From Candidatus Omnitrophota bacterium (GTDB lineage: Bacteria > Omnitrophota > Gorgyraeia > Zapsychrales > JAKLDJ01): a DNA stretch of 64,000 bases. Positions 1,546 through 41,228 of this stretch are shown piece by piece. Below the pieces are notes generated by a model, which saw only the letters and a program-made list of their open reading frames with translations, made no database searches and was not told the DNA's origin. The translations under genes and the position numbers were made by a program. Every line of letters starts with the position of its first letter. Within the stretch, counting starts at the first letter, position 1. Where the stretch lies: assembly GCA_022703585.1 (NCBI GenBank), contig JAKLDJ010000002.1:283413-347412 (forward strand). Reading direction: 5' to 3'.

Positions 1546-2283
1546 ATGTTTATCTTTCTTCGACTGCTATTGGCTCATTTTGTGGGGGATTTTCCCCTCC
1601 AGCTGAATGTCATTTTCAGGCTGAAAAATAAAGGGTTACGAGGTATCATCCCTCATGCATTCATTATCACCCTGTGTTGTATCACGCTTTCCTGGCCCTA
1701 CCTTCATCTGCCCCAACTATGGCTGTTTGTAGCTTTTATCGGGGTCACACACCTCGCCCAGGATTCAATCAAACTCAGCTACGGTACCATCAAGTATAGC
1801 TTCTGGACCTACCTTCTTGATCAACTTTCTCATGTAGGAATCATCGCGCTTGTTTTTTTTACCGATCTTAAGAACCTGCAGCCTCCCTGCGATCAATCCA
1901 GCCTTATCGTCCGAATTTACTCCAATGACATGCTCATCGTCTATTTGATTGCGCTCATTCTCGTCACTTATAACGGATTATTCTTAATCAGAAACTTTAA
2001 GATTACCTTCATGGGAAAATCGGGAATACATCATTCTTTCGAGAAATGGTACGGGATGGTCGAGAGGGCCTTAATAGTTTCGGCCTTCTTTACCGGTGGC
2101 TACGCTTTTCTTTGGCTGCCCGCAGTAATGCTGGCCAGGCCGCTTTTATTCTTCTCGTGGAGAAAACAGCTCGGGCTTCATAAGAATTTTATTTCCTTTG
2201 TAGAAATATCTTTAAGCTGGATAATAGCCGTCATTGTCGGAGTCGCGCTGTATTTATTTCAGGCCAATTACTCTGTATATTGA
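1546..2283 (+). CDS. polytopic membrane protein, DUF3307-like (N-terminal HFVGDFPLQ motif)
   Basis: 245 aa with multiple hydrophobic helices. The N-terminal LLAHFVGDFPLQ resembles the DUF3307 signature as I recall it. No catalytic motif recognised. Confidence 0.45.
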   Translation: MFIFLRLLLAHFVGDFPLQLNVIFRLKNKGLRGIIPHAFIITLCCITLSWPYLHLPQLWLFVAFIGVTHLAQDSIKLSYGTIKYSFWTYLLDQLSHVGIIALVFFTDLKNLQPPCDQSSLIVRIYSNDMLIVYLIALILVTYNGLFLIRNFKITFMGKSGIHHSFEKWYGMVERALIVSAFFTGGYAFLWLPAVMLARPLLFFSWRKQLGLHKNFISFVEISLSWIIAVIVGVALYLFQANYSVY

Positions 2284-4527
2284 AACAGGTTTTGACTTGC
2301 CCTTCACCGAGATCGGTTCCAGCTTTTCCACGAGGACGTGGTCGGCGACTAAAGCAAAGGTGGGTTCGCTGATAATAATTTCGTTCTTGCTGGCGGCAGA
2401 ACAGAGTCTCGCCGCCAAATTCACATTGTCCCCGATGACCGTATAATCCATCCGTTCTGCCGAGCCCATATTTCCCACAACCATTTCTCCGGTATTAATG
2501 CCGACGCCTATCTGCAAAGTTTCTCTTTTCTCTTGTACCCATTGAGCTTGGAGTTCTGCCATTTTGGCCTGAATCTCGACGGCAGTACGCACGGCTACTA
2601 ACGCATGATTATTCAAATGCTGGTTCCCCGGAGCGCCAAAGAACGCCATCACCTCATCACCGACAAATTTATCCAATGTCCCGTTGTATTTAAAAATAAT
2701 CTTTACCTGCTGTGACAAGATTTCATTGAGTGCGGCTACAACCTCTTCCGGCTGATGCGATTCGGAGAAAGTTGTAAACCCTCTCACATCGGAAAAAAGG
2801 ACGGTGATCAGGCGCCGCTCGCCCCCGAGTTTCAGCCGCGAAGGATCCTCAATGAGCTCAGAAATAACTTCGTTGGAAAGGTAGTGGCTAAAAGCTTTTT
2901 TGATCCAAAGTTTTTCCTTCTCTTCCGTAAAGAAACGAAAACTGGTTATGGAAGAAGACCCGAAGACCACAATCGCCAAGGGCCCCACCAAATCTATCCA
3001 GAGACCAAACCAGACAAAGGCAAAAAAAGCAACCAGAAAGTAGCCTAACGCGTAACCGATAGACAAGACGAAGCTTTTCCACAGCTTCATCAAAGAACTG
3101 AATGCTATAACCAGGGCCGTCAAAAGAAAAATAAAAACACGTAAACCGCCTTCCCTTTTTACGATAAAGTTTTCGGTGAGGATGGTATTGATAAAATTAG
3201 AATGCGTCCCCACCATAGGGTAGTTTTCCTGCAGGGGAATCGGACGCAGGTCATGCGTGCCTGTTGCCGTAAGCCCAACAATACAGATCTTTCCCTTGAT
3301 CATTTGGGTCAGTTTTTGCATCAGCTCAAGCTCGGTCTTTTTTAAATGTGCAACCGTGCCCGACCCGCCGGATACTTGAGCCTGGCCATCAGGATCGTTC
3401 TGCTGCTGTGCCAGCTGATCCCTGACTTCCTGAAGCTTGATAATAAGATGGTACGGGATATGTTTAAATGAGGCGTCCCACCTGCCTTGCCAATTGACCA
3501 GCATGCAGCCGTTCTCATCAACCGGAACAGAAATATCCTTCACCTTACCATCTAAGTGAGCGTCCTTGAGAATAACGCGATCAGGCGCAGTTTCTATTTT
3601 CTTAACTTCCAGAAAATCAATAAGAGCGGCTACTGTAAGCTGAGGCAGAATCTTATCCTCGTACTGCACAAAGAGCGGAACCCGGCGGGTCACGCCGTCT
3701 AAGTCGGGATTCGCATTAATAAAACCACTTCCCTTGATATGTTCGGCATACACCCGAATAGGCACAGCCAAATCCCCGTATTCTTTCTTAAAAGGCCATT
3801 TCTCCGACGGAAGGTTGCGGGAAAATTTATTAATAAAAAATCTCTCCAACTTTTGATTCGGAAAACGCTGACTGACATAATCTTCCAATTCGGCAAATAA
3901 AAACCAGCCTTGTGTTTGCTCCATCCTCTCCAAAAGACCTTCAAGCGAGATATCCGGGTCCTGGCGGATCAGATCCTTCGTGATTTCGCTTAAAACCATC
4001 CTCTGCGCCTTGGGAAGCTTATCACTTAAAGATTCAGCCCTCATTCCCAAAGTTTTTGCCGCATCTTCGACTGATATCGCAATATCTTTAAGAAGCAGGG
4101 ATTTAAGTTCCGGCGAAAGAACGGATTGATTTTCGTCAAAGTAAAAAGGCAGGTAGGTTATCCCTGTCCGGGAAAGGACATCTGCAAAAAAGGCATCTTC
4201 TTGGGGGTTATCCTTAAACTCCTCGGTAAAAAGGATATCCATCAGGATCTGTTTCGCCTGACATTCCTTTAAGAGGCTGGTGAGCTGGGCATGGTAATTT
4301 CTCGGCCAGGGCCAACGGCCTAAAGCCGCAAGGCCTTGATCGTCAATGTCAATATGCAAAATAGGGGCCCGGGGAGGATGATTATCCTTAAGGGCAAACC
4401 GCAGGTCTAAAGCCTTGAATTCTAAGATTTGGTAGGTTTTAGATTGTGCAGAAAAGAGAGTGAAACATGCCAGCGATATGGTAATGCCAAGGCTGACAAG
4501 TAATTTAACGCGAGCCTTTTTATTCAC
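2254..4527 (-). CDS. CHASE2 sensor-domain class III adenylate/guanylate cyclase
   Basis: N-terminal signal/TM, then a large periplasmic region and a TM block, matching CHASE2 topology. The C-terminal cyclase catalytic domain shows SDVRGFTTFSE...FVGDEVMAFFGAP...GINTGEMVVGNMGS, which are class III nucleotidyl cyclase motifs. Confidence 0.85.
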   Translation of the reverse strand: MNKKARVKLLVSLGITISLACFTLFSAQSKTYQILEFKALDLRFALKDNHPPRAPILHIDIDDQGLAALGRWPWPRNYHAQLTSLLKECQAKQILMDILFTEEFKDNPQEDAFFADVLSRTGITYLPFYFDENQSVLSPELKSLLLKDIAISVEDAAKTLGMRAESLSDKLPKAQRMVLSEITKDLIRQDPDISLEGLLERMEQTQGWFLFAELEDYVSQRFPNQKLERFFINKFSRNLPSEKWPFKKEYGDLAVPIRVYAEHIKGSGFINANPDLDGVTRRVPLFVQYEDKILPQLTVAALIDFLEVKKIETAPDRVILKDAHLDGKVKDISVPVDENGCMLVNWQGRWDASFKHIPYHLIIKLQEVRDQLAQQQNDPDGQAQVSGGSGTVAHLKKTELELMQKLTQMIKGKICIVGLTATGTHDLRPIPLQENYPMVGTHSNFINTILTENFIVKREGGLRVFIFLLTALVIAFSSLMKLWKSFVLSIGYALGYFLVAFFAFVWFGLWIDLVGPLAIVVFGSSSITSFRFFTEEKEKLWIKKAFSHYLSNEVISELIEDPSRLKLGGERRLITVLFSDVRGFTTFSESHQPEEVVAALNEILSQQVKIIFKYNGTLDKFVGDEVMAFFGAPGNQHLNNHALVAVRTAVEIQAKMAELQAQWVQEKRETLQIGVGINTGEMVVGNMGSAERMDYTVIGDNVNLAARLCSAASKNEIIISEPTFALVADHVLVEKLEPISVKGKSKPVSIYRVIGLK

Positions 4528-4551
4528 GAATTTTCCGTAGGTATAACTGGC

Positions 4552-5565
4552 TTAAAATTTGTAATACGTAGACGCCGAAATGAGCGATCCGGAATATTTA
4601 TCTACGGGTTCATTCGAATAGTTCTGACGATAGGTGTAATTTAAGCCGAAAGAAACGGCTTTATTTAAATTATAAAGAAGGCCCGTCGAAAACAGAAAGG
4701 TCCTCTCTTTTTCCTTATTACCGGCATCATTCATAAGTGTTCGGCTGCGGTAATCTCGATACTGCTCCCAAAAAGAGAAAACCCCGGCGAGCTTGTCATC
4801 AAAAATATGCGTTAAAGAAGTGCCGACTTTATAAGAATCGTAATCATAGTATTTCAAATATGTTTCATTAGAGTTGTTATTAAAATACTGAAAACTTACC
4901 TTGAGCAAATCTTTCTTAAAGTATTTACCGATTTCATACTCCACGACATTGCGGACATCGGTCCTCTCCTTGTCGGTATCGGTCGCTAAGGCTGTTCTCG
5001 TATAACGCTTCATGTAGTTACGATACAAGATATCATAGGCTAAGCTATGAAACATTTTATAGGGCAACTTATGCCGCATTTTAAGCTCTAATGTATTATC
5101 TAAGTAATCATCGCTTCCGCTCTTTAAAAACTCCATGCTGTCAAAACTATAGGTAGCAATAAGATTGACTTTTTTGTTGAGTTTATAATCGGCGCCGAAA
5201 CGCAAGCCGTTTTTGATTAGATTCAAGTCGCTCTCACCGGCATAAAACAGGCTCATCATTTCGTATTCAAATAATCCTTCTGTTTTTTTAGTGAGCGGGG
5301 CAAGAAAAGAAGCCCGAAAAAGAGTCTGGGTAAAGGCATCTGCCTCTCTCTGGCTATCCAGGTAAGCATTATTATCAAACCCTTCGGTGACAGCGAGGAG
5401 GTACTTGAATTTGCCTTTCTCTAAAAGAGACTTTTGCGGCCCCAGATAAATCTTCCTGATTCTGGGAGTAACTTCTTCCTCGCTTAAGTCCGTAGCATAA
5501 GAAATGGCCGGCATCAGCACCAAGGCCAAGATACCTGCTAAGACTATCAGTTTCTTGTTCTTCAT
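4552..5565 (-). CDS. outer-membrane beta-barrel protein (hypothetical)
   Basis: Signal peptide MKNKKLIVLAGILALVLMPAISYA. Alternating amphipathic Y/F/T-rich strands throughout. C-terminal ...STYYKF with a terminal Phe, typical of OMP beta-barrels. Confidence 0.55.
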   Translation of the reverse strand: MKNKKLIVLAGILALVLMPAISYATDLSEEEVTPRIRKIYLGPQKSLLEKGKFKYLLAVTEGFDNNAYLDSQREADAFTQTLFRASFLAPLTKKTEGLFEYEMMSLFYAGESDLNLIKNGLRFGADYKLNKKVNLIATYSFDSMEFLKSGSDDYLDNTLELKMRHKLPYKMFHSLAYDILYRNYMKRYTRTALATDTDKERTDVRNVVEYEIGKYFKKDLLKVSFQYFNNNSNETYLKYYDYDSYKVGTSLTHIFDDKLAGVFSFWEQYRDYRSRTLMNDAGNKEKERTFLFSTGLLYNLNKAVSFGLNYTYRQNYSNEPVDKYSGSLISASTYYKF

Positions 5566-5619
5566 CTTGCCTCCTTTATTTTTACTTTGTCTTTCTATCC
5601 GATAAGGAAAAAATTAATT

Positions 5620-6474
5620 TTAATGTTCGTGCCCGCCACCGCCGCCTATTTCATCGAGACGCTCTTCGGTATTGCGGTCTTCAATATCTTCCTGGGTGCC
5701 GATAACTTCCTCAATAACGCCTCCCTCTTCAGAGGTTTGATCAGTCTGCTGCTCAAGGGCAGATTTTTCCTCTTGCTTTGTCTCTTGCCGTTCTCTGCGC
5801 TCTGCCTCTATCTGGGCTCTGTTGCTCATCCTCCCCTCGACATTAGCAGAAAGATCCTCCATCATACCGTCAAAATTATCAAACTCCCGCGTGCTGATCT
5901 GCATCAGAGCACCTGCTGCCTCAAACCGCTCGATCAGCGTCTTAAATCCTTCCGGGAGCATGGTTTCGGAAATCTCATTCTTGTCAACATCGTAGGTCTT
6001 GATAAAAACAGTATCCTTATATGCGTAGACCTCATCCGCATCCCTCTCTACATAGACGGAATAACTGCTGCCCCTAACACCGGCTACCGCGGAGGGCGTA
6101 CTCACTTCAAAACTTAAGCCTGCCTTAATGCCTTCCAAATTGGAGTAAACTTTTCCCCGGGAAAGATCGAGCCGGTCTATGGACTCTTCGGTCGAGGATT
6201 GCAAGGCTACAAGTGTCTTGGGTTCGACCCTGATCATGTTCTTCTTTTCCGGATCAAGGGCAACCTCAGCCACGGAATGCCGTGCAGTCCTTATCAAATC
6301 TCCGATATCCACCTTCATCCCCTTCTCGGCCTTCTTCCATATATTATCCACCGGAGACTGCACTTGGACATTCCCTTCGACATAGACAATTTCCGCTGCG
6401 TTTAAAATTCTCTGGGTACCAATGACACCAAAGAATAACGCCATGCATAAAACCAACGCCTGATATTTTCTCAT
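5620..6474 (-). CDS. FecR-domain secreted protein with acidic low-complexity C-terminal tail
   Basis: FecR-like core: EIVYVEGNVQVQSPVDNIWKKAEKGMKVDIGDLIRT...VSTPSAVAGVRGSSYSV. Start moved to the internal ATG at 6474 (MRKYQALVLCMALFFGVIG signal-like N-terminus), which has a GGGAGAG RBS 6 nt upstream. C-terminus is E/R/Q-rich and ends GGGGGHEH. Confidence 0.6.
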   Translation of the reverse strand: MRKYQALVLCMALFFGVIGTQRILNAAEIVYVEGNVQVQSPVDNIWKKAEKGMKVDIGDLIRTARHSVAEVALDPEKKNMIRVEPKTLVALQSSTEESIDRLDLSRGKVYSNLEGIKAGLSFEVSTPSAVAGVRGSSYSVYVERDADEVYAYKDTVFIKTYDVDKNEISETMLPEGFKTLIERFEAAGALMQISTREFDNFDGMMEDLSANVEGRMSNRAQIEAERRERQETKQEEKSALEQQTDQTSEEGGVIEEVIGTQEDIEDRNTEERLDEIGGGGGHEH

Positions 6475-6538
6475 AACCATCTCTCCCTTTTGCATAACCC
6501 TTTGAATGAATAGCATCAATTAAACGCTCCCTTTATTG

Positions 6539-8311
6539 CTAAAAGCCCTGAGTAACAGACCACCATACATGCGGATAATGCCCGGTATCGTCTTTGGGAT
6601 CATCCTCCGATGTCGGCCAGCCAACATCCAAACGTGTTGCCAGATTCCGGTCGGGGACATTAAACAACACTCCGAAACCCGCCGAACTTAAAGTGGTAGT
6701 CTCCCTCTGCGATTCTGTGGGATTTTTTAAGATCGCCTCTCCCCAGTCATAGAAGGTAAATAATTTTACAGAATCATATAATTTCGTTTTTGAAAAAGGA
6801 ACATTGAGGTGCCGCGGGACACCAAAAGGAGGAAAAGAGAATCCTCCGCTAAACGATCTTCCTGAATCTCCGGGGGCCTGGGCGCGCGGATATCCCCGGT
6901 TATCGATAACGCCCATGATGCCTCCTATACTAAACACATTGACGCCGGTAAGAGCCTGAGAAGAAAGTTGCCATTTTCCTTTACCAATAAAATCAATTCC
7001 GGCAAAAAGTTTCTGGCGCCGTGCAACCGTTATAATATTCTTCGTATAGGCACTGCCGGCACCCGGTACAGACGTCTCGTCGCTCTTTCTGGGAGAAGCA
7101 CCCCACATCCCGGGGATCCCTTTTTCCAGGTCATTAGTAATAACCCACCGCCCGTATTTATCGGCGCGGTTAAAATCAATCCCCCACATGAGGGATCGAA
7201 ACCTGTCTTTCTTGGTAGCATGTTTCCAATCGCGATCTCCGCCATTCTGATACCAATGAATATCCATGTATTTAAAACCATACTGGGATACGAGTTCGCA
7301 ATTCGGCTCATCGATCAGGGATTGGTTAAACCAAAAATAGAACTTACGCGCGTGTTTCTCAAAATCTGTCTGCTCGTTGTCTGAGTAATAATAATCCTCG
7401 ATCTTATAGGGCATGTAATACAGTTCGAGTTTCCAGGTATTATTCAGAGGAAGAAAATAATCAATGTCCGCCAGCTGATGGGCATCGGCTTCCGTTCTTT
7501 GGACCTTGATCGTCACGGAATCATCATGGCCGGTAATATTGTTATGCGTAAGATAGGTTTTGTAGCGCCTTTGGAAGATATATTCCGATCCATAGTTATC
7601 CACCTGGAGGGTAGAATGCAACGTGGATTTATCTTTAACGGTAATAACGATATTCGTACGCCCTGTCTGCACATTAGGGTCACAGGCAACACTCACTTTT
7701 CGATCCGGATGCTTGTTGATTCTGTAAATATCCTTATTGAGCTGCCTGAAATTAAAAGGCTGGCCCTCTTTTAAGGTAATTTTCTTTTCCAAGAGCTTGG
7801 TAGAAAAGTGTTTATTCCCCTGGAACTCAATGGTACCGGTCTTGCCTTCGACCACCATAATTTCCAAAATACCGGAGCTTAACTTATCGGGAACAATGTA
7901 AGCGTACGAGGTAATATAACCTTCGCGGCTGTAGGCACGGGTAATAAGATCCGCCGCTTTCTGCATCTGTTTGGCGTTAAGTTCTTTATTCTCAAATCCG
8001 GCTTTAATCTCATCAATGGCTTCTTGGGCCAGAAAGGTCGAACCGATAACATCAATCCGGTCGATTTTTGTTTTTCCTGCGGGCAAAGTGGGCTTAGGAA
8101 TTTGCGCGTCCACTGTTTGCTTCAATGCAATAGCCGGAGATTTAGCGCTTTTGCTTACAATGTCTTTTTCTATCTGCGCCGATCTAGCGTCATCATCAGC
8201 GGCATCCTCATCAAAGGCAAAAACCCCTTGAGGATTAACAATAATCGCCAGAGCCAAAAATAGGATAAAAACGACCCCTCCACACACCGCACGCCAATTA
8301 CTTTTTACCAT
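6539..8311 (-). CDS. TpsB/ShlB/FhaC-family outer-membrane transporter (POTRA + beta-barrel)
   Basis: N-terminal TM/signal. POTRA-like segment IDRIDVIGSTFLAQEAIDEI...ILEIMVVEGKTGTIEFQGNKHFSTKLLEKKITLKEGQPFNFRQLNKDIYRINK. Long beta-rich C-terminal domain ending ...WWSVTQGF (terminal Phe). Confidence 0.7.
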   Translation of the reverse strand: MVKSNWRAVCGGVVFILFLALAIIVNPQGVFAFDEDAADDDARSAQIEKDIVSKSAKSPAIALKQTVDAQIPKPTLPAGKTKIDRIDVIGSTFLAQEAIDEIKAGFENKELNAKQMQKAADLITRAYSREGYITSYAYIVPDKLSSGILEIMVVEGKTGTIEFQGNKHFSTKLLEKKITLKEGQPFNFRQLNKDIYRINKHPDRKVSVACDPNVQTGRTNIVITVKDKSTLHSTLQVDNYGSEYIFQRRYKTYLTHNNITGHDDSVTIKVQRTEADAHQLADIDYFLPLNNTWKLELYYMPYKIEDYYYSDNEQTDFEKHARKFYFWFNQSLIDEPNCELVSQYGFKYMDIHWYQNGGDRDWKHATKKDRFRSLMWGIDFNRADKYGRWVITNDLEKGIPGMWGASPRKSDETSVPGAGSAYTKNIITVARRQKLFAGIDFIGKGKWQLSSQALTGVNVFSIGGIMGVIDNRGYPRAQAPGDSGRSFSGGFSFPPFGVPRHLNVPFSKTKLYDSVKLFTFYDWGEAILKNPTESQRETTTLSSAGFGVLFNVPDRNLATRLDVGWPTSEDDPKDDTGHYPHVWWSVTQGF

Positions 8312-8468
8312 TGACCCATCCTCCTTTTACGAATTCTAGCCTGCCAATGATTCCTTTATAGCCGTTTTTCTCTGAAACATAACACCTAGCAATATATAGG
8401 TATTATCGTAAATGCTCTACTTTGTATTGTCAAGAAAATATCTACAAATACATACAATTTTTGAAACC

Positions 8469-9137
8469 CTATTTCTCGTTTATTTTCTGAGAAAAATAAT
8501 TGATAAAGACGAAGATAAACAAAACACCGATAACCAATTGCGCCATAACCGCTATCTGCCCTGCAGCCCCCCGGGCGCAAATATCTCCAAACCCGACGGT
8601 GGTATTCGCCACCATACTGAAATACAATGCCGAAACAGGAGTCAGGTCCTGGTTCAAAAGATCAAAGCCGATATAAATAACCGCAAAATCAAAAATAACT
8701 TCCATGTAATGCACAAAAAGCAGCAAAATAGAACGGTGATACGACATCGAGACGCCGTAAATATCCGATAGGAAGATTATATTAAGGATATGGAGGACTG
8801 TTTCGCTCAATAAGTAAATAATAATAAAAACAATCAGCGGATTTTGGTATAACCCGGAAGACAAGACAAAAAGCGGAAACAGAAATTTAAAAACCGTATA
8901 CGCTTCGACGGCGAGCTTTCTGGAGAGAAATCCTCCCCGGCCGAATGCATCGCGCACCAAAAGAACGGGAAAAACAAACTGGATAGCACAAAGAAATAAC
9001 CGTACGAGGCGCTCCAGGCCGTAGGTATCATCCGCCCAAACCTTTTTGAGCAGCCTTAACTGCTGCACATAAGCTTCTGGCGGCTTATCGTCGGAAGTAC
9101 TCTGCGGGCCAATAAACAGGTGTTTGAATTTAAACAT
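8469..9137 (-). CDS. small potassium-channel-like protein (pore helix + TTVGFGD selectivity filter)
   Basis: Hydrophobic helices followed by YFSMVANTTVGFGDI (a TVGYGD-type K+ filter) and a final TM, IAVMAQLVIGVLFIFVFINYF. Confidence 0.6.
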   Translation of the reverse strand: MFKFKHLFIGPQSTSDDKPPEAYVQQLRLLKKVWADDTYGLERLVRLFLCAIQFVFPVLLVRDAFGRGGFLSRKLAVEAYTVFKFLFPLFVLSSGLYQNPLIVFIIIYLLSETVLHILNIIFLSDIYGVSMSYHRSILLLFVHYMEVIFDFAVIYIGFDLLNQDLTPVSALYFSMVANTTVGFGDICARGAAGQIAVMAQLVIGVLFIFVFINYFSQKINEK

Positions 9138-9150
9138 TGTGCCGGCGTGC

Positions 9151-10038
9151 TTACTTATCCTCAGTGTGTACTTTTTTATAATATCGTTTCGTATAATATT
9201 GCAGCGCGTCGTCGTTGGTAAGCCATATATTATCCTGACCTGGCCCTATATATTTGAATACTTCGGTAGCCAGGCCGTCTTTGTTATAGACGAACACCCT
9301 GGTTGAAGAAATAATATCATCCGGAGTAAACCACTGGCCGTCAGGGCCAAGGCCTTCATGCTGCGCATGGTATTCCATGGCGCGAGTCATCTTCCCTTGA
9401 TCATCATATTCGTGCTTATGGCATTTTTCAATCTCATCGTCAGCGGTAAACCACTTATGATCTGCGCCTTGACCTACATACTCTATATCCTGCGTCACTT
9501 GGCCAAACGGCCCGTAGGCATAGGTAGTGTAGCGTACCACTTCACCCTTGCTATTGTATCGTACCGCCCGAGTCTTTCTTCCTGAAGCATCGTGCTCATA
9601 GAGGGAACGATATTCTTCGGCATCTTCGCCTCTTCCTTTGTTCTTATAAAAAACTTCTTTAACCGGCGCTCCATTTTCATCGTATTCATAATCCTGCATC
9701 TCTTCATCAGAGCCGAGCGCGAAGTCGATTATTCCTGCAAAACATTTCTTTTTGGTCAATTTTCCCTGACGGTTATATTCGGTAATATAATAACGATAGA
9801 CCTTATCATCCTTGGTAAACCATTGGCCGTCTTTACCCGCGACATACTTAACTTCTTTAGCCACGCGTAAATTGCTGCCGGCGGGTAGGGTTGCATCCTC
9901 TATATCTACAACCTCTGCCTTCTGTAAAGAAAGCTGCTCATCGCCCAAGCCTAAGGGCTGGGCGAACAAACCATGCGGCTTAGCGAACAAAAAAGCCCCC
10001 AGAATAATCAAAGCAGCAACAACTCTTTTACGCATCAA
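9151..10038 (-). CDS. secreted repeat protein with 4x about 45-aa 'G.G.D..WFTxDD' repeats (unassigned family)
   Basis: Signal peptide ...LFAKPHGLFAQ. Four repeats: AGKDGQWFTKDDKVYRYY / GQGADHKWFTADDEIEKCHKHEY / GLGPDGQWFTPDDIISST / GPGQDNIWLTNDDALQYY. Paralog of the next gene, with visible DNA-level similarity. Confidence 0.6.
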   Translation of the reverse strand: MMRKRVVAALIILGAFLFAKPHGLFAQPLGLGDEQLSLQKAEVVDIEDATLPAGSNLRVAKEVKYVAGKDGQWFTKDDKVYRYYITEYNRQGKLTKKKCFAGIIDFALGSDEEMQDYEYDENGAPVKEVFYKNKGRGEDAEEYRSLYEHDASGRKTRAVRYNSKGEVVRYTTYAYGPFGQVTQDIEYVGQGADHKWFTADDEIEKCHKHEYDDQGKMTRAMEYHAQHEGLGPDGQWFTPDDIISSTRVFVYNKDGLATEVFKYIGPGQDNIWLTNDDALQYYTKRYYKKVHTEDK

Positions 10039-10135
10039 GTTCCCTGGAATAAAAACTGTTTTTAAGTAAACTTATCTTTTAATCCGAATCCGAGAATAAA
10101 AATGACCCCGGAAATACCCCAATCGTAACGGTTAC

Positions 10136-11050
10136 CTACTGCCAGGAATCTTCGGCGTCTGCCTTCGCATAATACCGCAACGTATAATATTGAAGAACAT
10201 CGTCGTCGGTAAACCAGGCATGATCCGGGCCCGGCTTTAAATACTTGAGCGTCTTGGCAACCAAACCTTCGTTATTGTAGGCGTACACCTTGGTTGAAGA
10301 AACAACATCATCCAGGGTAAACCATTGGCCGTCAGGGCCCCGCCCCTGGTGCTGTGCGTGACATTCGGTAACGTGAATCAATTTTCCCTGGTTGTCATAT
10401 TCGCGCTTGTGATATTTCTCGATTTCATCATCGGCGGTAAACCATTGGTTATCCGTACCCTTAGCTGTATATTCAACATCTTGCATGATTCTTCCCTGCG
10501 GATCGTATTGATAAGTAATATAGCGTATAATCTCTCCCTTGGAATCATATCGTATTGTCTTGGTTTTATTTCCCAAGGCATCATGTTCATAGACCGCATG
10601 ATATTCTTCAAGATCTTTGCCTGACTCTGTCTTTTTATAGCCGGCCTCTTTAACCGGCCCTCCCTCAGCATCATATTTATAGACGATGTAATTCTGCAAT
10701 TTGTCGCCAGCGTTGGACGCAAAGTAATCAAGCTGTGTGGTTAAACATTCTCTTTTGGTCATCTTCCCGCGGTCATCGTAGGTAGCAAGATAATAGTGGT
10801 AGATCTCATCATCATCCGTAAACCACTTGCCGTCCTTGCCGGCGACATATTTAATCTCTTGAGTCGCATGCAGATGCCGGTCGCGAGGGATAGTTGTCTC
10901 CTCGGCCTCCGCAACCCCTGTCTTCTGCACAGAAATCCCATCGCTACCCAGCTCCGAAGGCTGAGCGAATAAATCATGCGATTTAACTATCAGGAAGAAA
11001 CCCGCCCCTAAAATAATAAAAGCAATAACAACAATTCTTTTATGCATCAA
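10136..11050 (-). CDS. secreted WFTxDD-repeat protein (tandem paralog of 9151-10038)
   Basis: Signal peptide ...IVKSHDLFAQ. Repeats GKDGKWFTDDDEIYHYY / AKGTDNQWFTADDEIEKYHKREYDNQGK / GRGPDGQWFTLDDVVSST / KPGPDHAWFTDDDVLQYY. Both paralogs end ...YY.K...ED. Confidence 0.6.
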   Translation of the reverse strand: MMHKRIVVIAFIILGAGFFLIVKSHDLFAQPSELGSDGISVQKTGVAEAEETTIPRDRHLHATQEIKYVAGKDGKWFTDDDEIYHYYLATYDDRGKMTKRECLTTQLDYFASNAGDKLQNYIVYKYDAEGGPVKEAGYKKTESGKDLEEYHAVYEHDALGNKTKTIRYDSKGEIIRYITYQYDPQGRIMQDVEYTAKGTDNQWFTADDEIEKYHKREYDNQGKLIHVTECHAQHQGRGPDGQWFTLDDVVSSTKVYAYNNEGLVAKTLKYLKPGPDHAWFTDDDVLQYYTLRYYAKADAEDSWQ

Positions 11051-11084
11051 TCTCCCCTAAAATGAAAACTGCTTTTGCGCAAAC

Positions 11085-12200
11085 TTATCTCTGTCCGGGA
11101 ATAAAAATAGCCCCGGTCTTTTCGGTCGCCACTGTTTTGACTACCCGGAATCCCTCGACCTGCCGGCTGAACCCCGAAATATCATACGAACGATAACTAT
11201 TCTCAACGGCCTGTTCGTGCATAACAGAATCGATCATAAAAGGAACGCCGTATTCTTTGCGGTAATTAGGATCCAAGAGAAAACTTCCTCCCCGCACCAC
11301 GCGCGCCGAACGGAACTCTTTAAAAAACGGAAGATAATAATACAAGCTCGGGCCCGGGCCTACCGGATCAATTTTCTCGTCGGGAGAAAAATAGGAATCG
11401 TTGTACCAGTCATTGCAAAATTCCGCAACGTTACCGGCCATATCGCAAACACCGAGCTTACTGTCCCCTTTGGGCGACAACGAACAGACGGCAGCGGTCG
11501 CCACTTCAACGGGGTCTTTGATTTCTCTTTTGATGTTGGCATACGATTGATCGGGCTGGGCATCTCCCCACGGATATTTTCGCCCGTCATCAAATTGGGC
11601 AACATATTCCCATTCGGCTTCGGTGGGAAGCCGATAACCGGTCTTTCCGTACACCTGACAGGACCAGTCATCTAGATTATACAAAGGCGTTAAACCCTCA
11701 ATTTCGCTCAGCATATTGGCGTAAAACGCCGCGCCGTTCCAGGTCACCTCGACTACGGGGAAATTTTCCTTGCCCGGCAACGGCTTAAATTGCCCGTCGA
11801 CAAACGTAATTTGGGAATGCTCGTCAGTAAAATCCTGGTATTTTTGGGGCGATTTCGAAACACCTCGCGCTTCGCCTCTCTTATTTCCCTTGGCTACCAT
11901 GGCCTCCTTGTCAAGATAGCCCTTGCTCAGCGCATAATTAAGCACATCCGCATACTGCTGGTTCGTTACCTCGGTCTTCCCGATTGAAAAATCATTAGTT
12001 AGAATTACCTTGTGAACCGGGCTAGCATTAGGAAATGCGTCACTACCTACCTGGAAAGTAATTCCTTTGCCTGCCACCGAAACCGGGATCATCTCCGGCT
12101 TCTGCATTTCAGCTGATTGGCCATGAGAGATTACCGGCAGCAAAAAAAGGCAAACCCCGGCAAACAAAGAAAGAGAGACAAGAATAAATGTCTTTTTCAT
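11085..12200 (-). CDS. FGE-sulfatase (SUMF1/EgtB/PvdO-type) domain protein, secreted
   Basis: Signal peptide. Motifs LPTEAEWEYVA, GNVAEFCNDWY, ARVVRGGSF and GFRVVK are characteristic of the formylglycine-generating-enzyme fold. Confidence 0.75.
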   Translation of the reverse strand: MKKTFILVSLSLFAGVCLFLLPVISHGQSAEMQKPEMIPVSVAGKGITFQVGSDAFPNASPVHKVILTNDFSIGKTEVTNQQYADVLNYALSKGYLDKEAMVAKGNKRGEARGVSKSPQKYQDFTDEHSQITFVDGQFKPLPGKENFPVVEVTWNGAAFYANMLSEIEGLTPLYNLDDWSCQVYGKTGYRLPTEAEWEYVAQFDDGRKYPWGDAQPDQSYANIKREIKDPVEVATAAVCSLSPKGDSKLGVCDMAGNVAEFCNDWYNDSYFSPDEKIDPVGPGPSLYYYLPFFKEFRSARVVRGGSFLLDPNYRKEYGVPFMIDSVMHEQAVENSYRSYDISGFSRQVEGFRVVKTVATEKTGAIFIPGQR

Positions 12201-12245
12201 AAAAACGCTCCTTTGAAAATACTGTTTCTGCTAAAGTAAATTTCT

Positions 12246-13865
12246 TTAGAAACCCAGCCTGCAACCGCTATTTTTTCCGTCTTCGCTCTTGGGGAAATTA
12301 GCCGCAAAACGTAGTGAAATGCGCAAATACTTTGGTGCCGGGCTTGACCACACGCCGCCTCGGTTTCCCGCGCCGGCGCCGTCCTTGCCGGGCCAGTTAG
12401 ACACATTAGAGAAACCGTCCGCATCGAGCTCACCGTCACCGTGCTGCCCGTCATAAATACGGCCCAGCTGATGGCCGATGGTAACGCATCGTTCCCATAC
12501 GTTTCCGGAAAGATTGCGCACGCCGTAATAGGAAGCACCGTCATTGATCATTTGGGTAACACCCTCATGCCGGCTGTTTTCAAAAAGCTCACCCGAAACC
12601 GGGCCTTCAAATCCGGGATTATCCGGAACGGTCTTTTTACCGACATCAAAAGGAGCAATGCCACCGCCAAAACAGGCATTGACCACGCCAGTCTGCGGGA
12701 CCTTCTTTTCGTATCCCGAACCGTCTGCACCGTCAAACGTTTCGGCGCGGCCTACATCCTGGGTCATCGGACTGCCCCATGCCAATTCGTCAATAACCGC
12801 TTCTTTGGGGCCGCGAGCTGCTTTTTCATATTCCAGTTCGGTGATTGGGCGTAATCCGGACCAATCGCCGATAGCTGCGATATTCGACCAAGACATGAAA
12901 TTAACCGCACGTGCCGGGGCATAAGTATAAAACCTCACCGGCTCAGTAGTGCCATTGCCTTTCTTTGCAACAACAACGGCGTTACGCAGATGCTCTTCTG
13001 CGCTGTTCGTCTTGACATAGTAATTTTTAATCTCATCCCCGCTGATATCCGCTTCTACCATGCTCTGTTGTTGTTTTCGATTCAGCGTATTTAAGAAATC
13101 AACAAACTGCTGTGAAGTCAACTCGTATTTCATGACCCAAAACGCTTTGTATCCCTTGGGGAATTCTTTGGGGATAGTAAAAGGCACATCCTCACGGCTG
13201 CGGGGATTATCCTGGTCGCAATATAACACCCCGTCCACTTTATCGACGAGAATAGGGTCCTCCGAGGCAATTAAATAAGAGCCGTTGTTGGGATATACGT
13301 AGAAGGTATTATCCGGGCCGTCCGGGCCCTTGGGGTCTCCAACGTAATGTTTATCCTGCGGTATATAAACCATCTCAAAACCAAATACCTTGACCTTGGT
13401 TTTCAATATCTGCTCGTCGCTGACACCGTCTTTGGTATAATCCCAGACCAGCTGGACATTTTTTGAAACAACATTGCCGCTGCCCTTGGTTTTAAAAAGA
13501 AAGGCCCCTTTTTGTTCCGGAGAAATCCACATCCCCAAGTCCGCAAGGTCGCCTTTGGAAAACATTGCAGGAGTATGATCTGCATTGTCAAAATTAACCC
13601 CGCTTGAGCTTTTCATATTGACGTGTTTCCAGGCGCCTTCCGGGGTCTGGAATTTCACAAACACCCAGACCGCATCACAGTTTGTCTCGTTTTTCCAAGC
13701 ATTATCCCAGGAAATGTTAAATTGGATCTTGGCAATCTTCCGTTCGGTGTTGACTTCGCTTAAGGTCACATTATCTACTTTAAGATGGCTGGCAAAGGCC
13801 ATGCCCGGAACCAACAAAAAAGTAATCCCGAGAACAGTTACGAAACTGCACAATTTCCTTTTCAT
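12246..13865 (-). CDS. FGE-sulfatase-domain protein with about 220-aa N-terminal beta-rich extension, secreted
   Basis: Signal peptide MKRKLCSFVTVLGITFLLVPGMAFA. The C-terminal half has FWVMKYELTSQQF, RPITELEYEKAARG, NLSGNVWERC and GNRGGVWSS...CRLGF, a divergent FGE domain. Confidence 0.65.
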   Translation of the reverse strand: MKRKLCSFVTVLGITFLLVPGMAFASHLKVDNVTLSEVNTERKIAKIQFNISWDNAWKNETNCDAVWVFVKFQTPEGAWKHVNMKSSSGVNFDNADHTPAMFSKGDLADLGMWISPEQKGAFLFKTKGSGNVVSKNVQLVWDYTKDGVSDEQILKTKVKVFGFEMVYIPQDKHYVGDPKGPDGPDNTFYVYPNNGSYLIASEDPILVDKVDGVLYCDQDNPRSREDVPFTIPKEFPKGYKAFWVMKYELTSQQFVDFLNTLNRKQQQSMVEADISGDEIKNYYVKTNSAEEHLRNAVVVAKKGNGTTEPVRFYTYAPARAVNFMSWSNIAAIGDWSGLRPITELEYEKAARGPKEAVIDELAWGSPMTQDVGRAETFDGADGSGYEKKVPQTGVVNACFGGGIAPFDVGKKTVPDNPGFEGPVSGELFENSRHEGVTQMINDGASYYGVRNLSGNVWERCVTIGHQLGRIYDGQHGDGELDADGFSNVSNWPGKDGAGAGNRGGVWSSPAPKYLRISLRFAANFPKSEDGKNSGCRLGF

Positions 13866-13904
13866 ATTCCCTCTCCTTTTCTCTTTACTGAATTATTAAA
13901 AGAT

Positions 13905-15326
13905 TTAATGCATCGGTTTAGCGGCGGCGTATTGTTTAAAACCGCCCTGCCGCACCGTTTTGACGGCGCTAAAGAGTCCGACGACGGTCGCCGCCGCCAA
14001 ACTCATTGAAAGAAAATTAAACTGGCTTCTAAAGGCATCCTGTCCCGGAAATGAAGAAGCCATTTTTAAGATAACCGGCGAAAGAAATTGGCCCAAATAA
14101 ATCCCGACGCTCACGACCGCCATGGCAAATGCCCGGGAGGCCTCCGGCGTTATCTTGGCCGCCCGTAAAAGTAAAAGCGGCATCAATATCCCCGAACTAA
14201 ATCCTATACAGAGCATTGAAATAAGAACAAGGGTTAAAGATGACGCACACCCGAGAAGGCTATAGCCGATCGACATCGCTGCAATGCCGATCACCGAACA
14301 ATAAGGCCCGAACAAACGCAACAACATCGCCAGAATAATACCGGACACAACGCCGACTAATGTCATCGCGGAAAGAAAATATCCCGCGATGCCGGGCCTT
14401 CCCATGCGCTCCGAGGAAACAACCAAACCGTCTTTTTGTTTTGTCACAATATATTTTTTATTTTTATCTACAATGCTCCATCTCTTTCCCGGCTCCTCCA
14501 CGGCGAACGCGGCTTTTTCTGAAATAGCGATCCCGTTATTCTTAAAAGACTCAACCGTCGTCTGGGAAATTGTTCCCTGAGCCAAATTGGCCTCGAGTTC
14601 CGCCTTATCCTTAAATAAAGGAGTCGTGCTGGTATACATGGCCCGTTCGTTCTCAATGAACATCGCCAAGTTGGTCGGCGCCGCGTAAAAAGCGACCATC
14701 ATCAGCGCCCCTAAAACCGCGCATACAAAAACCCCTCCGGGGAGTTTTGATTTAACCAGGCCCGACGGCTTTTTGGATTCCGGTTCCGGCAGCCAGAAAA
14801 ATACAGTCAGCATAATCAGCAAAGACAATCCGTAGACACCAAATGCATAACGCCAGTTCATGCACGCCAGCCATCCCGAAAGCAAAAGAAATACAACCCC
14901 TCCGAAGTGGGACACCGAACCGGAGAGCCCCATCATCTTGGCCCTCTCTTCCTTCTCGTAGAAATCCGCAATCAGGCTTATGGAAAGAGGAATGATTAAA
15001 CCTACCCCGATGCCAAAAAGGCCGCGGATAATCAAAAGCTGGGTTATGCTCTGTGCTAATCCCCCGCCGACTCCGCCTAAGAAATAAATAACAAGCCCAA
15101 TGAGGAGAATGTATTTCTTTTTCATCCGCGAAGCCAGCCATCCCCCGAGCAAACTAAACGGAATAATCAGCAAAGAGGGTAAAGTCAAAACCAGCTTTAT
15201 TAAGGTAGGATCCGTACCGGGAAAGGCCTGGGAGATTTTTGCCAGGGCAGGAGAAATCGCTGCCGAGGCCATCACCGTCAAAAGCGATATCGAAAGAATG
15301 CTTATGCGCACTAACATATTGTTCAT
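13905..15326 (-). CDS. MFS transporter with about 100-aa cytoplasmic insertion between the two 6-TM halves
   Basis: 12 predicted TMs. MFS-like G-rich helices: LLIIRGLFGIGVGLIIP and GLVIYFLGGVGGG. The central soluble segment ...FIENERAMYTSTTPLFKDKAELEAN...KQKDGLVVSSERMGRP is an unusually long loop. Confidence 0.75.
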   Translation of the reverse strand: MNNMLVRISILSISLLTVMASAAISPALAKISQAFPGTDPTLIKLVLTLPSLLIIPFSLLGGWLASRMKKKYILLIGLVIYFLGGVGGGLAQSITQLLIIRGLFGIGVGLIIPLSISLIADFYEKEERAKMMGLSGSVSHFGGVVFLLLSGWLACMNWRYAFGVYGLSLLIMLTVFFWLPEPESKKPSGLVKSKLPGGVFVCAVLGALMMVAFYAAPTNLAMFIENERAMYTSTTPLFKDKAELEANLAQGTISQTTVESFKNNGIAISEKAAFAVEEPGKRWSIVDKNKKYIVTKQKDGLVVSSERMGRPGIAGYFLSAMTLVGVVSGIILAMLLRLFGPYCSVIGIAAMSIGYSLLGCASSLTLVLISMLCIGFSSGILMPLLLLRAAKITPEASRAFAMAVVSVGIYLGQFLSPVILKMASSFPGQDAFRSQFNFLSMSLAAATVVGLFSAVKTVRQGGFKQYAAAKPMH

Positions 15327-15925
15327 TTAGTTTCTGCCTTAAGAGCCTTGAGAAGCGTTTCGCCAAACTCTTTTGCCGAGCCCGGCCCATCGGCGGTAAT
15401 GATATTTCCGTCCTTTTCAACCGGCTTGGCCGTGTAATTAACGCCGCAGGTTTTAAGCTTGTCCCCTTCCGAGGGATAGACGGTCGCATTTTTATCTTTT
15501 AAAACACCGGCATTGGCTAATATACGCGGGGCCAGGCAAATACCGCCGAGGATTTTATTTTTGGCAATGGCTTCCTGGGCAATTTTATGCGCCAGAGGAT
15601 CGTCGATATACTGCGCCGCACCCGACCCGCCGATAAACACAACTGCATCAAAATCATCCACATTAACGTCTTGAACCAATATATCCGGCGTGGTCTTGGC
15701 CCCATTCATGCCGGTTGCTTCATTAAGCGTTGTCGAGGCAACCGTGACCAAAACTTCGTTGTTTTCAAGGATAGCTAAAGGCTGGGCAAATTCATCATCC
15801 TGAAAGTTCTCCTGTGGAATAATAAAAACAGCCTTTTTAATCATCGAATCCTGAGCAAAAACAGGAGGCAACAGGAAAGCACCTGCCACAACCAACGCTA
15901 AAGCTAAACCGAAAATCTTTTTCAT
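15323..15925 (-). CDS. DJ-1/PfpI-family protein with signal peptide (exported)
   Basis: Signal MKKIFGLALALVVAGAFLLPPVFAQ. DJ-1 fold motifs VVFIGGSG and the nucleophile elbow ILGGICLAPRILANAG with a Cys. Confidence 0.8.
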   Translation of the reverse strand: MKKIFGLALALVVAGAFLLPPVFAQDSMIKKAVFIIPQENFQDDEFAQPLAILENNEVLVTVASTTLNEATGMNGAKTTPDILVQDVNVDDFDAVVFIGGSGAAQYIDDPLAHKIAQEAIAKNKILGGICLAPRILANAGVLKDKNATVYPSEGDKLKTCGVNYTAKPVEKDGNIITADGPGSAKEFGETLLKALKAETK

Positions 15926-17934: not shown

Positions 17935-18329
17935 AAAGCCTCCATGACCTCAATTAAGATCCCGTCGGGATCTTTGATAAAAAAATAGCAAGCTCCGCTG
18001 TCAAACATGCGCAAATCCGTCGCAAAGGAAATCTTTGCTTTCTTAAATTTCCGATAGGCGCCCGCGATATCCGAAACCTCGACGGAAAAATGTTTAACGC
18101 CTAGAGTCCGCAAATCATTGCCTAAGGTCTTGCGATAGCCGGGAAGCGGTTTATATTTTTTAAACTCAAAAAGCTCTAAAACGATATCGCCTTTCTTCAA
18201 AAGCGCGATGGTAAACCCTTTATCCGGATACGCGTATTTTTTGACGCAGCGCAGATTAAAATATTTGCGGTAAAACGCAACCGATTTATTTAAGCTCGAA
18301 ACACTCAGAGCAATATGGCCAAGTTTCAA
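17931..18329 (-). CDS. VOC-family (glyoxalase/bleomycin-resistance/dioxygenase fold) protein
   Basis: MKLGHIALSVSSLNKSVAFYRKYF...VLELFEF is a typical glyoxalase-I-like betaalphabetabetabeta start. 132 aa. Confidence 0.7.
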   Translation of the reverse strand: MKLGHIALSVSSLNKSVAFYRKYFNLRCVKKYAYPDKGFTIALLKKGDIVLELFEFKKYKPLPGYRKTLGNDLRTLGVKHFSVEVSDIAGAYRKFKKAKISFATDLRMFDSGACYFFIKDPDGILIEVMEAL

Positions 18330-18347
18330 AGCTGTCCCTTTAGATCT

Positions 18348-20000: not shown

Positions 20001-20059
20001 GAGATTACCCCTTTTTTTGAATAATTATTTTTTGCCGGTGCGTCCCGGCATTAAGGAAT

Positions 20060-20290
20060 CTATTCGCCCGGTTTTTTCTGGCTGAATTTCCCCACAGCGA
20101 CCTTAGGCGGCCGTTTGGAAAACAGTATTCCGTCCGCTGCCGCATTGTCAAGCGTATAGCCGTCAAAAAAAAGATAAATCCGGTCCTTCGGAACCTTAGT
20201 AACTTCCGATAGAATCGTTATGAATTTATCGGCAACAATTTCTTTTTGCTCATCGGTAAGTTCTAAGGACTGGACAGTGATCGCAGGCAT
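20060..20290 (-). CDS. 4-oxalocrotonate tautomerase-family protein
   Basis: 76 aa with Pro directly after the initiator Met (MPAITVQS...). The size and beta-alpha-beta layout are typical of 4-OT family tautomerases. Confidence 0.7.
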   Translation of the reverse strand: MPAITVQSLELTDEQKEIVADKFITILSEVTKVPKDRIYLFFDGYTLDNAAADGILFSKRPPKVAVGKFSQKKPGE

Positions 20291-20321
20291 AAGTTCCCCC
20301 TTATGTTTAGTATAGGGACGT

Positions 20322-20353
20322 TCCGCCCGCGCCGCTTTAGCGGCGCGGGCGGA
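20322..20353. repeat. GC-rich perfect 14-bp stem / 4-nt loop hairpin (tccgcccgcgccgc-ttta-gcggcgcgggcgga)
   Basis: Read directly from the sequence. Lies in the 82-bp gap between the DJ-1-like gene and the tautomerase gene. No adjacent U-tract on either strand. Confidence 0.6.
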
Positions 20354-20372
20354 GCGTTATTGTTTGATACTT

Positions 20373-21146: not shown

Positions 21147-21166
21147 TTCTTCCTCCTTTTTGTTTT

Positions 21167-21517
21167 TTACTTTTTCTGCTGTTGACCTTTTTCCATCCAC
21201 GGAAAATCCAATTTTATCGGGCTGAATATATCGATCGCCTCTGTCTGTCCGATAGCGGTAAACTCATGCGGAACATCAGGAGGGATGAAATACGCATCTC
21301 CGGCTTCCAGCACCGAGGTTTCGTTACCGATCATCATTTTAAAACCGCCCTTGATCACATACCCGAATTGTTCTTGGGAATGCGTATGGAGCTTGACCAT
21401 ACTCTTATCAGCCATATCCCAATGCTGTGCATTCATCTTGGTGCATTCGCCCAGATACTGACGAATGACACCGCCACCCATATCCATCTTCTCTAATTTT
21501 TTCCGGTGAACAAACAT
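21167..21517 (-). CDS. cupin-domain protein
   Basis: LHTHSQEQFGYVIKGGFKMMIGNETSVLEAGDAYFIPPDVPHEF gives the two cupin motifs G(X)5HXH...G(X)5PXG(X)2H. Confidence 0.7.
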   Translation of the reverse strand: MFVHRKKLEKMDMGGGVIRQYLGECTKMNAQHWDMADKSMVKLHTHSQEQFGYVIKGGFKMMIGNETSVLEAGDAYFIPPDVPHEFTAIGQTEAIDIFSPIKLDFPWMEKGQQQKK

Positions 21518-41143: not shown

Positions 41144-41228
41144 GCGGAAGTGGCGGAATTGGTATACGCGTACGCCTCAGGCGCGTATGGGGAAACCCTT
41201 GAGGGTTCGAGTCCCTCCTTCCGCACCA
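41144..41228 (+). tRNA. tRNA-Leu (anticodon CAG), class II with long variable arm, CCA encoded
   Basis: Acceptor stem GCGGAAG/CTTCCGC (7 bp). Anticodon stem TACGC/GCGTA with loop CT-CAG-GC. Variable-arm hairpin GGGG-aaa-CCC. T-arm GAGGG-TTCGAGT-CCCTC. Discriminator A then CCA. Confidence 0.85.

Follow-up and report, generated by a model that had tools for sequence, protein, structure and literature searches.

Results

Two adjacent genes with a recurring WFTxDD motif

The DNA analyzed here is a 64-kb stretch of a Candidatus Omnitrophota genome (contig JAKLDJ010000002.1, positions 283,413 to 347,412), called the window below, and our subject is a pair of adjacent genes on its minus strand, geneA and geneB, whose products REP-A and REP-B are built from a tandem repeat with a W[FL]TxDD core. 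The genes and the predicted signal peptides of their products, in coordinates of the window, are as follows.

10136..11050 (-): geneB (REP-B), predicted exported YD-like/WFTxDD repeat protein; 304-amino-acid open reading frame (ORF) from TTG
10964..11050 (-): geneB predicted signal peptide, amino acids 1-29, cleavage LFA/Q; read from the sequence, the family alignment, and a helix in the AlphaFold2 (AF2) model
9151..10038 (-): geneA (REP-A), paralogue of geneB; 295-amino-acid ORF from TTG
9961..10038 (-): geneA predicted signal peptide, amino acids 1-26, cleavage LFA/Q; read from the sequence and the family alignment

A preliminary description of this DNA had proposed that two neighboring ORFs of 295 and 304 amino acids encode tandem paralogous secreted proteins, each with four W-F/L-T-x-D-D cores, and all of this was borne out. 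The ORFs lie at the positions listed, their products share 54% of their amino acids, and each product starts with a basic and hydrophobic leader ending in LFA/Q. TTG-ATG opens both ORFs, and the likely starts are the ATG codons at 11047 in geneB (303 amino acids) and 10035 in geneA (294 amino acids), which is also where the database entries for both proteins begin (303 and 294 amino acids; source, a Candidatus Omnitrophota metagenome-assembled genome [MAG]). REP-B is identical to database protein P0001 (PL155_01465), and REP-A is P0003 (PL155_01460).

There are exactly four W[FL]TxDD motifs per protein, at residues 73, 196, 236, and 272 of REP-A and 76, 203, 243, and 279 of REP-B. These eight copies were the sole ones in six-frame ORFs of at least 100 amino acids across the window, and just 74 of 200,000 shuffles of geneB contained at least one. 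Because the motif is confined to the two genes and rare in shuffles, and because the two proteins align at 54% identity (E value, 3e-121), both the motif and the paralogy are real. The possibility that the motif recurs by chance, or that the ORFs are noncoding, has a negligible probability in view of about 40 full-length homologs, a ratio of nonsynonymous to synonymous substitution rates (dN/dS) below 1, a confident AF2 model, and the near absence of the motif from shuffled sequences; geneA and geneB are genuine coding genes.

In the AF2 model of REP-B, a helix spanning residues 2-20 precedes a disordered linker (residues 25-52) with a low predicted local distance difference test (pLDDT) score, and the A/Q site is conserved across the alignment of the repeat-protein family. 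On the basis of the predicted leaders, geneA and geneB encode Sec-exported proteins that are about 270 amino acids long in mature form. After the last repeat, only 8-12 residues remain in each. Predicted cleavage exposes an N-terminal Gln in most family members (the Ala codons preceding the site are at 10964..10966 and 9961..9963), and this residue could become pyroglutamate; the feature is not common to the other exported proteins of the gene cluster.

A 36-residue unit with a WFT loop at every second turn

The repeat domains and the loop cores found in them are listed below.

10163..10873 (-): geneB repeat domain, seven 36-amino-acid two-strand units (14 beta-strands); hidden Markov model (HMM) of the unit, DSSP of the AF2 model
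10808..10825 (-): geneB WFTDDD loop core, unit 1; motif scan
10427..10444 (-): geneB WFTADD loop core, unit 5; motif scan
10307..10324 (-): geneB WFTLDD loop core, unit 6; motif scan
10199..10216 (-): geneB WFTDDD loop core, unit 7; motif scan
9175..9870 (-): geneA repeat domain, seven units; unit HMM
9805..9822 (-): geneA WFTKDD loop core, unit 1; motif scan
9436..9453 (-): geneA WFTADD loop core, unit 5; motif scan
9316..9333 (-): geneA WFTPDD loop core, unit 6; motif scan
9208..9225 (-): geneA WLTNDD loop core, unit 7; motif scan

Consecutive motifs in the two proteins are 123/127, 40, and 36 amino acids apart, and 36 amino acids is the dominant period in remote relatives (419 of about 1,000 spacings). 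The units of about 45 residues suggested earlier thus give way to a true period of 36 residues and seven units per protein. The consensus derived from 374 units reads GpDGxWFTaDDvvssYxxyxYDaxGnxtxxxxYxGP. An HMM of this unit, trained on non-Omnitrophota proteins only, detected seven units in REP-A (E value, 2.5e-54) and seven in REP-B (E value, 2e-58), in agreement with the 14 strands of the AF2 model. Units 1, 5, 6, and 7 carry the full WFT loop, and units 2-4 retain the YD half only; a strict regular expression finds 4-5 YxYDxxG turns per protein. Since the pattern G.D...FT.DD is still present in units 2 and 3 of many orthologs in the family alignment, these two units of the window's proteins are degenerate, and units 2-4 of geneA and geneB have, judging from the aligned sequences, lost the WFT loop.

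The REP-B model, computed from a 32-sequence alignment, reached a pLDDT of 85.5 (above 90 over the repeat core) and a predicted template modeling score (pTM) of 0.75, and consists of 14 strands in consecutive hairpins. As modeled, each protein is one open antiparallel 14-strand sheet that follows a disordered linker of about 30 residues. In the strand and loop map of REP-B, odd-numbered turns are taken up by WFT loops of 12 residues and even-numbered ones by short D-x-x-G turns, so that the WFT loops line one edge of the open sheet. They are the most conserved elements of the repeat family, with conservation of 0.68-0.79 at WFT-loop turns (0.60 at the degenerate third turn) versus 0.46-0.57 at YD turns. 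The repeat unit is a YD/RHS beta-hairpin variant in which every second turn is swapped for a 12-residue GxDGxWFTxDD loop.

Several residues of REP-B, namely, H213, E228, K268, and Q286-Y287-Y288 (303-amino-acid numbering; about 10187..10411), are invariant in the Omnitrophota subfamily. The invariant stretches EKYH, EYH, and LQYYT fall outside the generic repeat consensus and are a candidate subfamily-specific interaction site.

Family placement of the repeat

The preliminary description could not assign the repeat to a family, and this proved half right. The YD half maps to Pfam RHS_repeat (PF05593), with marginal scores of 22.5 bits for REP-A and 25.9 bits for REP-B at a gathering cutoff of 22. 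Among the 32 family members, 15 match this model (best E value, 4.5e-7); TIGR01643 (YD_repeat_2x) scores under its cutoff for both proteins. The WFTxDD loop has no such counterpart: no Pfam or NCBIfam model covers it, and sequence searches of the PDB with the family alignment and with the 404-amino-acid repeat region of P0055 found nothing meaningful. The mapping to a known family is therefore a loose one, good for the YD half and absent for the loop.

A Foldseek comparison of the AlphaFold model, suggested in the preliminary description, placed the YD shells of Rhs effectors, TcB/TcC, and teneurins on top of the PDB matches (E values, 5.8e-9 to 1e-5; for the entries 8uy4, 7q97, 8cp6, 4igl, 4o9x, and 6fb3, 5.8e-9 to 5e-6; probability, up to 1.0). 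The TM-scores to these shells are low (0.08-0.26), which points to a resemblance that is local and not global. Over the whole model, small open hairpin sheets fit best, namely, the DUF4595 proteins 4ghb and 3tzg (TMq, 0.36-0.38), and the single-layer sheets of OspA are also among the matches, ranked after the YD shells. Against viral models, MORN-repeat proteins came out on top. At the profile level, DUF2963, MORN_2, and DUF4595, all of them beta-hairpin repeat families, remain below threshold, with subthreshold matches in 3-9 of 32 members.

Other placements were considered and dismissed. Membership in MORN/MORN_2 was rejected because the profile scores under its curated threshold (14 bits for REP-A versus a cutoff of 29.6, with 7 of 32 members matching at E values below 0.1), though a structural resemblance exists. 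A beta-propeller and a dockerin-like module had been named earlier as examples of known repeat families, and neither was found with Pfam, AF2, or Foldseek. For the propeller, there is no Pfam match and none among the top 50 Foldseek matches, and the model is a run of two-strand hairpins; for dockerin or EF-hand, no profile matches the window's proteins or the family, the model is all-beta, and GxDGxWFTxDD is unlike DxDxDG. A TpsA passenger was rejected as well, there being no match to Haemagg_act, the Pfam domain of two-partner secretion (TPS), in REP-A, REP-B, or the family.

An old duplication under purifying selection

The preliminary description had taken similarity at the DNA level as a sign of recent duplication, and had also raised the question of positive selection between the paralogs. 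Neither is supported. The two genes share 67% of their nucleotides, 54% of their third positions, and 54-56% of their encoded amino acids, and a dN of 0.29 compares with a saturated dS of 0.9-1.6, giving a dN/dS of 0.18-0.40. The identity between REP-A and REP-B (56%) equals that to orthologs in other MAGs (53-59%), a neighbor-joining tree places the two as weak sisters on long branches, and the alignment of the genes contains no long identical DNA tracts that would indicate recent gene conversion. Given the nucleotide identity, the saturated dS, and an amino acid divergence matching that of orthologs, geneA and geneB are best read as old tandem paralogs. All computable dN/dS values, for whole genes and in sliding windows, are below 0.45 with dS saturated. 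Purifying selection thus appears to act on both paralogs, and nothing grossly suggestive of positive selection was seen.

In other Omnitrophota, the corresponding position is occupied by one repeat gene only. Additional copies have arisen elsewhere: locus L014 has an independent second copy 3 kb downstream of the first (5989..6888 and 9838..10551), and a dispersed paralog without the cluster neighbors (L021, 6004..6810) lies about 18 kb away from locus L011 on the same contig. Such independently gained copies imply that the copy number of the repeat gene is labile.

Distribution of the repeat

A search across metagenomes had likewise been suggested at the outset. We searched 1.84 billion representative proteins, clustered at 50% identity, with a profile and retrieved 3,920 clusters from many phyla at an E value of at most 1e-3, 776 at 1e-10, and 208 at 1e-30. 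The full-length family of about 300 amino acids occurs in Omnitrophota MAGs only; some of these MAGs bear the labels Planctomycetales or Victivallaceae from binning pipelines. Strong matches outside this family are mostly proteins of 400-1,700 amino acids with up to 12 exact motifs. These long relatives usually have a lipobox, 47 of the 96 that were scanned have an N-terminal Big_5 Ig-like domain, and some have HYR; RHS_repeat is matched by only 10 of 96 long WFT-rich relatives.

Carriers include Zeta-, Beta-, and Gammaproteobacteria (Sideroxydans, Sideroxyarcus, and Rhodoferax among them), with iron-oxidizing Zeta- and Betaproteobacteria represented, and further Desulfobacterota, Geobacteraceae, Myxococcota, Leptospirales, Spirochaetota, Nitrospiria, and Acidobacteria. 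The cultured gammaproteobacterium Thalassolituus maritimus DSM 24913 encodes a 1,604-amino-acid lipoprotein with a central block of generic WFTxDD/YD repeats (L088, 4060..8874) and would lend itself to experimental work on the repeat.

Natural fusions to an FGE-fold domain

The gene immediately upstream of geneB encodes a 371-amino-acid protein of the FGE-sulfatase fold, here called FGE371. Ten natural fusions of 590-603 amino acids (P0046 and P0197-P0205), which have diverged to 48% identity, join an FGE-fold domain through a short linker to a repeat domain. P0046 (L006, 748..2538) is found in the same operon context, with the gene order FGE::REP-ShlB-Kch in this fusion clade; the source record of one fusion says Candidatus Latescibacterota. 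Fusion of this "Rosetta-stone" kind is evidence that the FGE-fold and repeat proteins work together. Fold matches of the fusion model are FGE, PvdO, CarF, and PorK for one half, with FGE structures on top, and Rhs for the other. The model of P0046 has a pLDDT of 89 for each domain and of 58 for linker residues 341-350, and its pTM is 0.67.

FGE371 reads RGGSFLLDPNYRKEY where the Cys pair of FGE enzymes would be expected; the segment following RGGS, FLLDPNYRKEY, contains no Cys. FGE371 is probably noncatalytic, like PorK/GldK and PvdO. The name given to its orthologs in databases, "SUMF1/EgtB/PvdO family nonheme iron enzyme", is perhaps an overannotation.

A conserved Omnitrophota gene cluster

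The neighbors of geneA and geneB in the cluster are as follows.

12246..13865 (-): second FGE-fold protein (FGE539), 539 amino acids; Pfam, synteny
11085..12200 (-): FGE-sulfatase-fold protein (FGE371), 371 amino acids, predicted signal peptide; PF03781 (1.2e-37), fusions, synteny
8469..9137 (-): small membrane protein of the K+-channel type (Ion_trans_2, TVGFGD filter), 222 amino acids; Pfam, synteny
6539..8311 (-): TpsB/Omp85-like outer-membrane protein (POTRA_2 plus ShlB barrel); Pfam, synteny
5620..6519 (-): FecR-domain protein; Pfam, synteny
4552..5565 (-): putative beta-barrel (weak BBP2_2 match, below cutoff); Pfam, synteny
2254..4527 (-): CHASE2-domain adenylate/guanylate cyclase; Pfam, synteny

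On the minus strand, the order is ThiJ-like, TPP enzyme, one DUF1566/Lcl_C x4 protein, DJ-1, and MFS transporter, followed by FGE539, FGE371, geneB, geneA, K+ channel, TpsB/ShlB-like, FecR, beta-barrel, and CHASE2 cyclase. Of 24 Omnitrophota loci counted at species level, about 18 share the order FGE539-FGE371-REP-Kch-(ShlB)-FecR-barrel-CHASE2. The intergenic gaps of the cluster contain no terminator-like sites. The K+-channel gene starts 13 nucleotides downstream of geneA, and in other MAGs its start overlaps the stop of the repeat gene by 4-29 nucleotides, which suggests translational coupling. In most loci, a ShlB/POTRA_2 gene is found one or two genes downstream of the repeat gene, and in L030, L032, and L006 it follows that gene directly. 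It is missing from L031 and L036, both of which have the repeat gene, and the K+ channel is missing from L033 and L030. The repeat gene is the least conserved and fastest-evolving gene of the cluster, with 33-55% identity versus 42-86% for its neighbors.

The region from 2254 to 21200 (-), together with 1546..2283 (+), forms a supercluster conserved across Omnitrophota MAGs, with a divergent DUF3307 gene at its end. In divergent members (L009 and L010, of the P0020 locus, and L030), the repeat gene adjoins the ThiJ-tautomerase-TPP-Lcl_C-MFS half on the opposite strand, without FGE-fold genes. This arrangement hints that the repeat protein may also be related to that half of the cluster. Rfam and tRNA scans returned nothing near geneA and geneB; the sole RNA gene detected in the window (ARAGORN; Rfam at gathering thresholds) is a tRNA-Leu(CAG) at 41144..41228 (+).

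Discussion

Our analysis places the repeat of REP-A and REP-B beside the RHS/YD repeat of type VI secretion system (T6SS) Rhs effectors, of TcB/TcC, and of teneurins. Both are tandem beta-hairpins with a YxYDxxG turn, and both have a two-hairpin unit, of 36 amino acids here and 38 in the Pfam model. The GxDGxWFTxDD loop at every second turn is missing from the RHS model, and the sheet is open and 14-stranded instead of a closed shell of many tens of repeats with plug, autoprotease motif, and toxin. MORN_2 (PF07661), DUF2963 (PF11178), the "porin-like" DUF4595, and OspA resemble the repeat domain as open antiparallel hairpin sheets of similar size; however, they lack the WFTxDD loop, and the Pfam scores of the window's proteins are under the respective cutoffs. 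Moreover, MORN_2/YwqK proteins are cytoplasmic, whereas the products of geneA and geneB have a predicted signal peptide. Thus, the fold class and the YD half are already known, and the WFTxDD loop variant, the 36-residue unit, and the FGE-linked Omnitrophota subfamily are undescribed. We found neither the repeat nor the cluster described in the literature, which was searched for the motif, for Omnitrophota in combination with YD or FGE, and for CHASE2 in combination with FecR or TpsB.

We moderately favor the reading that the repeat proteins, once exported, are scaffolds or binding partners for the adjacent lectin-like FGE-fold envelope protein. The repeat protein, which has no catalytic signature, would sit in the cell envelope as a rigid scaffold or a binding subunit, and its partner would be the FGE-fold (C-type-lectin-like) protein encoded immediately upstream and forming one polypeptide with it in the fusion clade. 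In each loop, the Trp and Phe side chains are probably packed against the sheet, and the three Asp residues, which are invariant, may cap the loop or bind Ca2+. Such packing and capping would stiffen the single-layer sheet and give it a regularly spaced acidic and aromatic edge for binding. With two FGE-fold proteins, the K+-channel-like protein, the TpsB/Omp85-like barrel, FecR, the second barrel, and the CHASE2 cyclase, the repeat protein would belong to an Omnitrophota envelope module that plausibly connects cyclic-nucleotide signaling with an event of sensing or assembly at the envelope.

Several points speak against this partnership. Binding between the repeat and FGE-fold proteins is putative, being drawn from operon, fusion, and synteny, and the fusion model, with its modest pTM and low-confidence linker, supports no fixed docking geometry. 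To judge from gene content, the partnership is not obligatory, as divergent members (L009, L019, L021, and L030) occur without FGE or ShlB genes. Binding of Ca2+ by the loop is conjectural, as is the glycan binding raised in the preliminary description, and the motif is unlike the DxDxDG, EF-hand, and dockerin signatures. Finally, the repeat gene evolves fastest in the cluster, and an exposed role as a ligand binder or adhesin fits this at least as well as a scaffold does.

The last point leads to an explanation to which we assign a smaller but appreciable probability, that of a surface adhesin or ligand binder exported across the outer membrane by the neighboring TpsB/ShlB-like transporter, in which the row of Asp/Trp loops would bind Ca2+, glycans, mineral, or a host surface. 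The rapid evolution of the gene, the invariance of the acidic loops, and the proximity of a ShlB/POTRA_2 gene in most loci all fit such a role, and the long relatives, as lipoproteins with Big_5 or HYR domains, have an architecture typical of surface proteins. However, neither protein contains a TPS (Haemagg_act) domain, L031 and L036 keep the repeat gene without ShlB, and fusion to an FGE-fold domain of periplasmic type favors the role of a partner. Gene order could also be taken to mean that the repeat protein is a periplasmic auxiliary subunit of the K+-channel-like membrane protein, the Ion_trans_2 gene being found directly after the repeat gene, overlapping it elsewhere, and paired with it in most loci. 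We consider this improbable, since the adjacency is not fixed, as seen in the fusion clade with ShlB between the two, the channel is missing from L033 and L030, and so small a channel would, from its sequence, offer little periplasmic surface.

The matches to RHS_repeat and to the Rhs and Tc shells might in turn point to a fragment or relative of a toxin-encapsulating Rhs/YD polymorphic-toxin shell, but this explanation is effectively refuted. A closed YD cocoon needs roughly 700 amino acids or more, and seven units (about 240 amino acids) are too few to close one. Neither a C-terminal DPxGL autoprotease motif nor a toxin domain is present, no toxin-family match exceeded its cutoff, PADLOC returned zero matches for the cluster, and the Pfam-scanned neighbors between 1546 and 21200 include no T6SS, PAAR/VgrG, or Tc genes. 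The Foldseek TM-scores likewise speak for local similarity.

The proposed pairing of the repeat protein with the FGE-fold protein invites comparison with PorK/GldK and PorN/GldN of type IX secretion. In both cases, the gene of an FGE-fold protein adjoins those of a beta-rich partner, exported here and periplasmic in type IX secretion, and of membrane proteins that conduct or are driven by ions, and FGE371, like PorK/GldK, probably lacks the catalytic Cys. The FGE neighbor matches GldK at the domain level (75 bits versus a cutoff of 350), and PorK is among the fold matches. On the other hand, the sequences of the cluster's FGE-fold proteins are not those of lipoproteins, the repeat protein has no relation to PorN, PorL/PorM, Sov, and other type IX secretion genes are absent here, and Omnitrophota are not Bacteroidota, so that the relation is one of analogy only. 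It is tempting to speculate, as a very improbable extension, that the WFTxDD/YD, two noncatalytic FGE-fold, K+-channel-like, and TpsB-like proteins form an Omnitrophota assembly, so far unrecognized, that spans the envelope and is a functional counterpart of the PorK/PorN ring and its ion-driven part in the inner membrane. FecR and the CHASE2 cyclase would read the state of this assembly, and the loop would represent a Ca2+-dependent rigidifying element of a new type.

The downstream half of the cluster, in which a FecR-domain protein and a CHASE2 receptor occur as a pair, has parallels elsewhere. The Burkholderia "BiofilmReg" operon exemplifies a gene pair of FecR and a CHASE2 sensor (PMC5192318), and in S. 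meliloti the FecR-domain protein SMc02177 is a target of the cyclic AMP regulator Clr, and CyaD1 is a CHASE2 cyclase (PMC5498481). Such pairs are envelope sensors, and the signals that they sense are unknown there too (PMC5192318, PMC5498481). In contrast to the Omnitrophota cluster, these systems include no YD-like or FGE-fold proteins.

The finding bears on no long-standing open question. Its interest lies in a 36-residue "GxDGxWFTxDD + YD" unit that is common in environmental bacteria and has neither a family model nor a solved structure. As no family model exists, its carriers are annotated as "hypothetical" or only as "Ig-like domain-containing", and many surface lipoproteins could be better annotated once the unit is defined. 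If the speculation on the loop were true, thousands of surface lipoproteins from different bacterial phyla would share a Ca2+-dependent rigidifying element. The Omnitrophota subfamily, linked by fusion and operon to an FGE-fold protein in an envelope and cyclic-nucleotide cluster, provides a concrete lead into the biology of a poorly understood, uncultured phylum.

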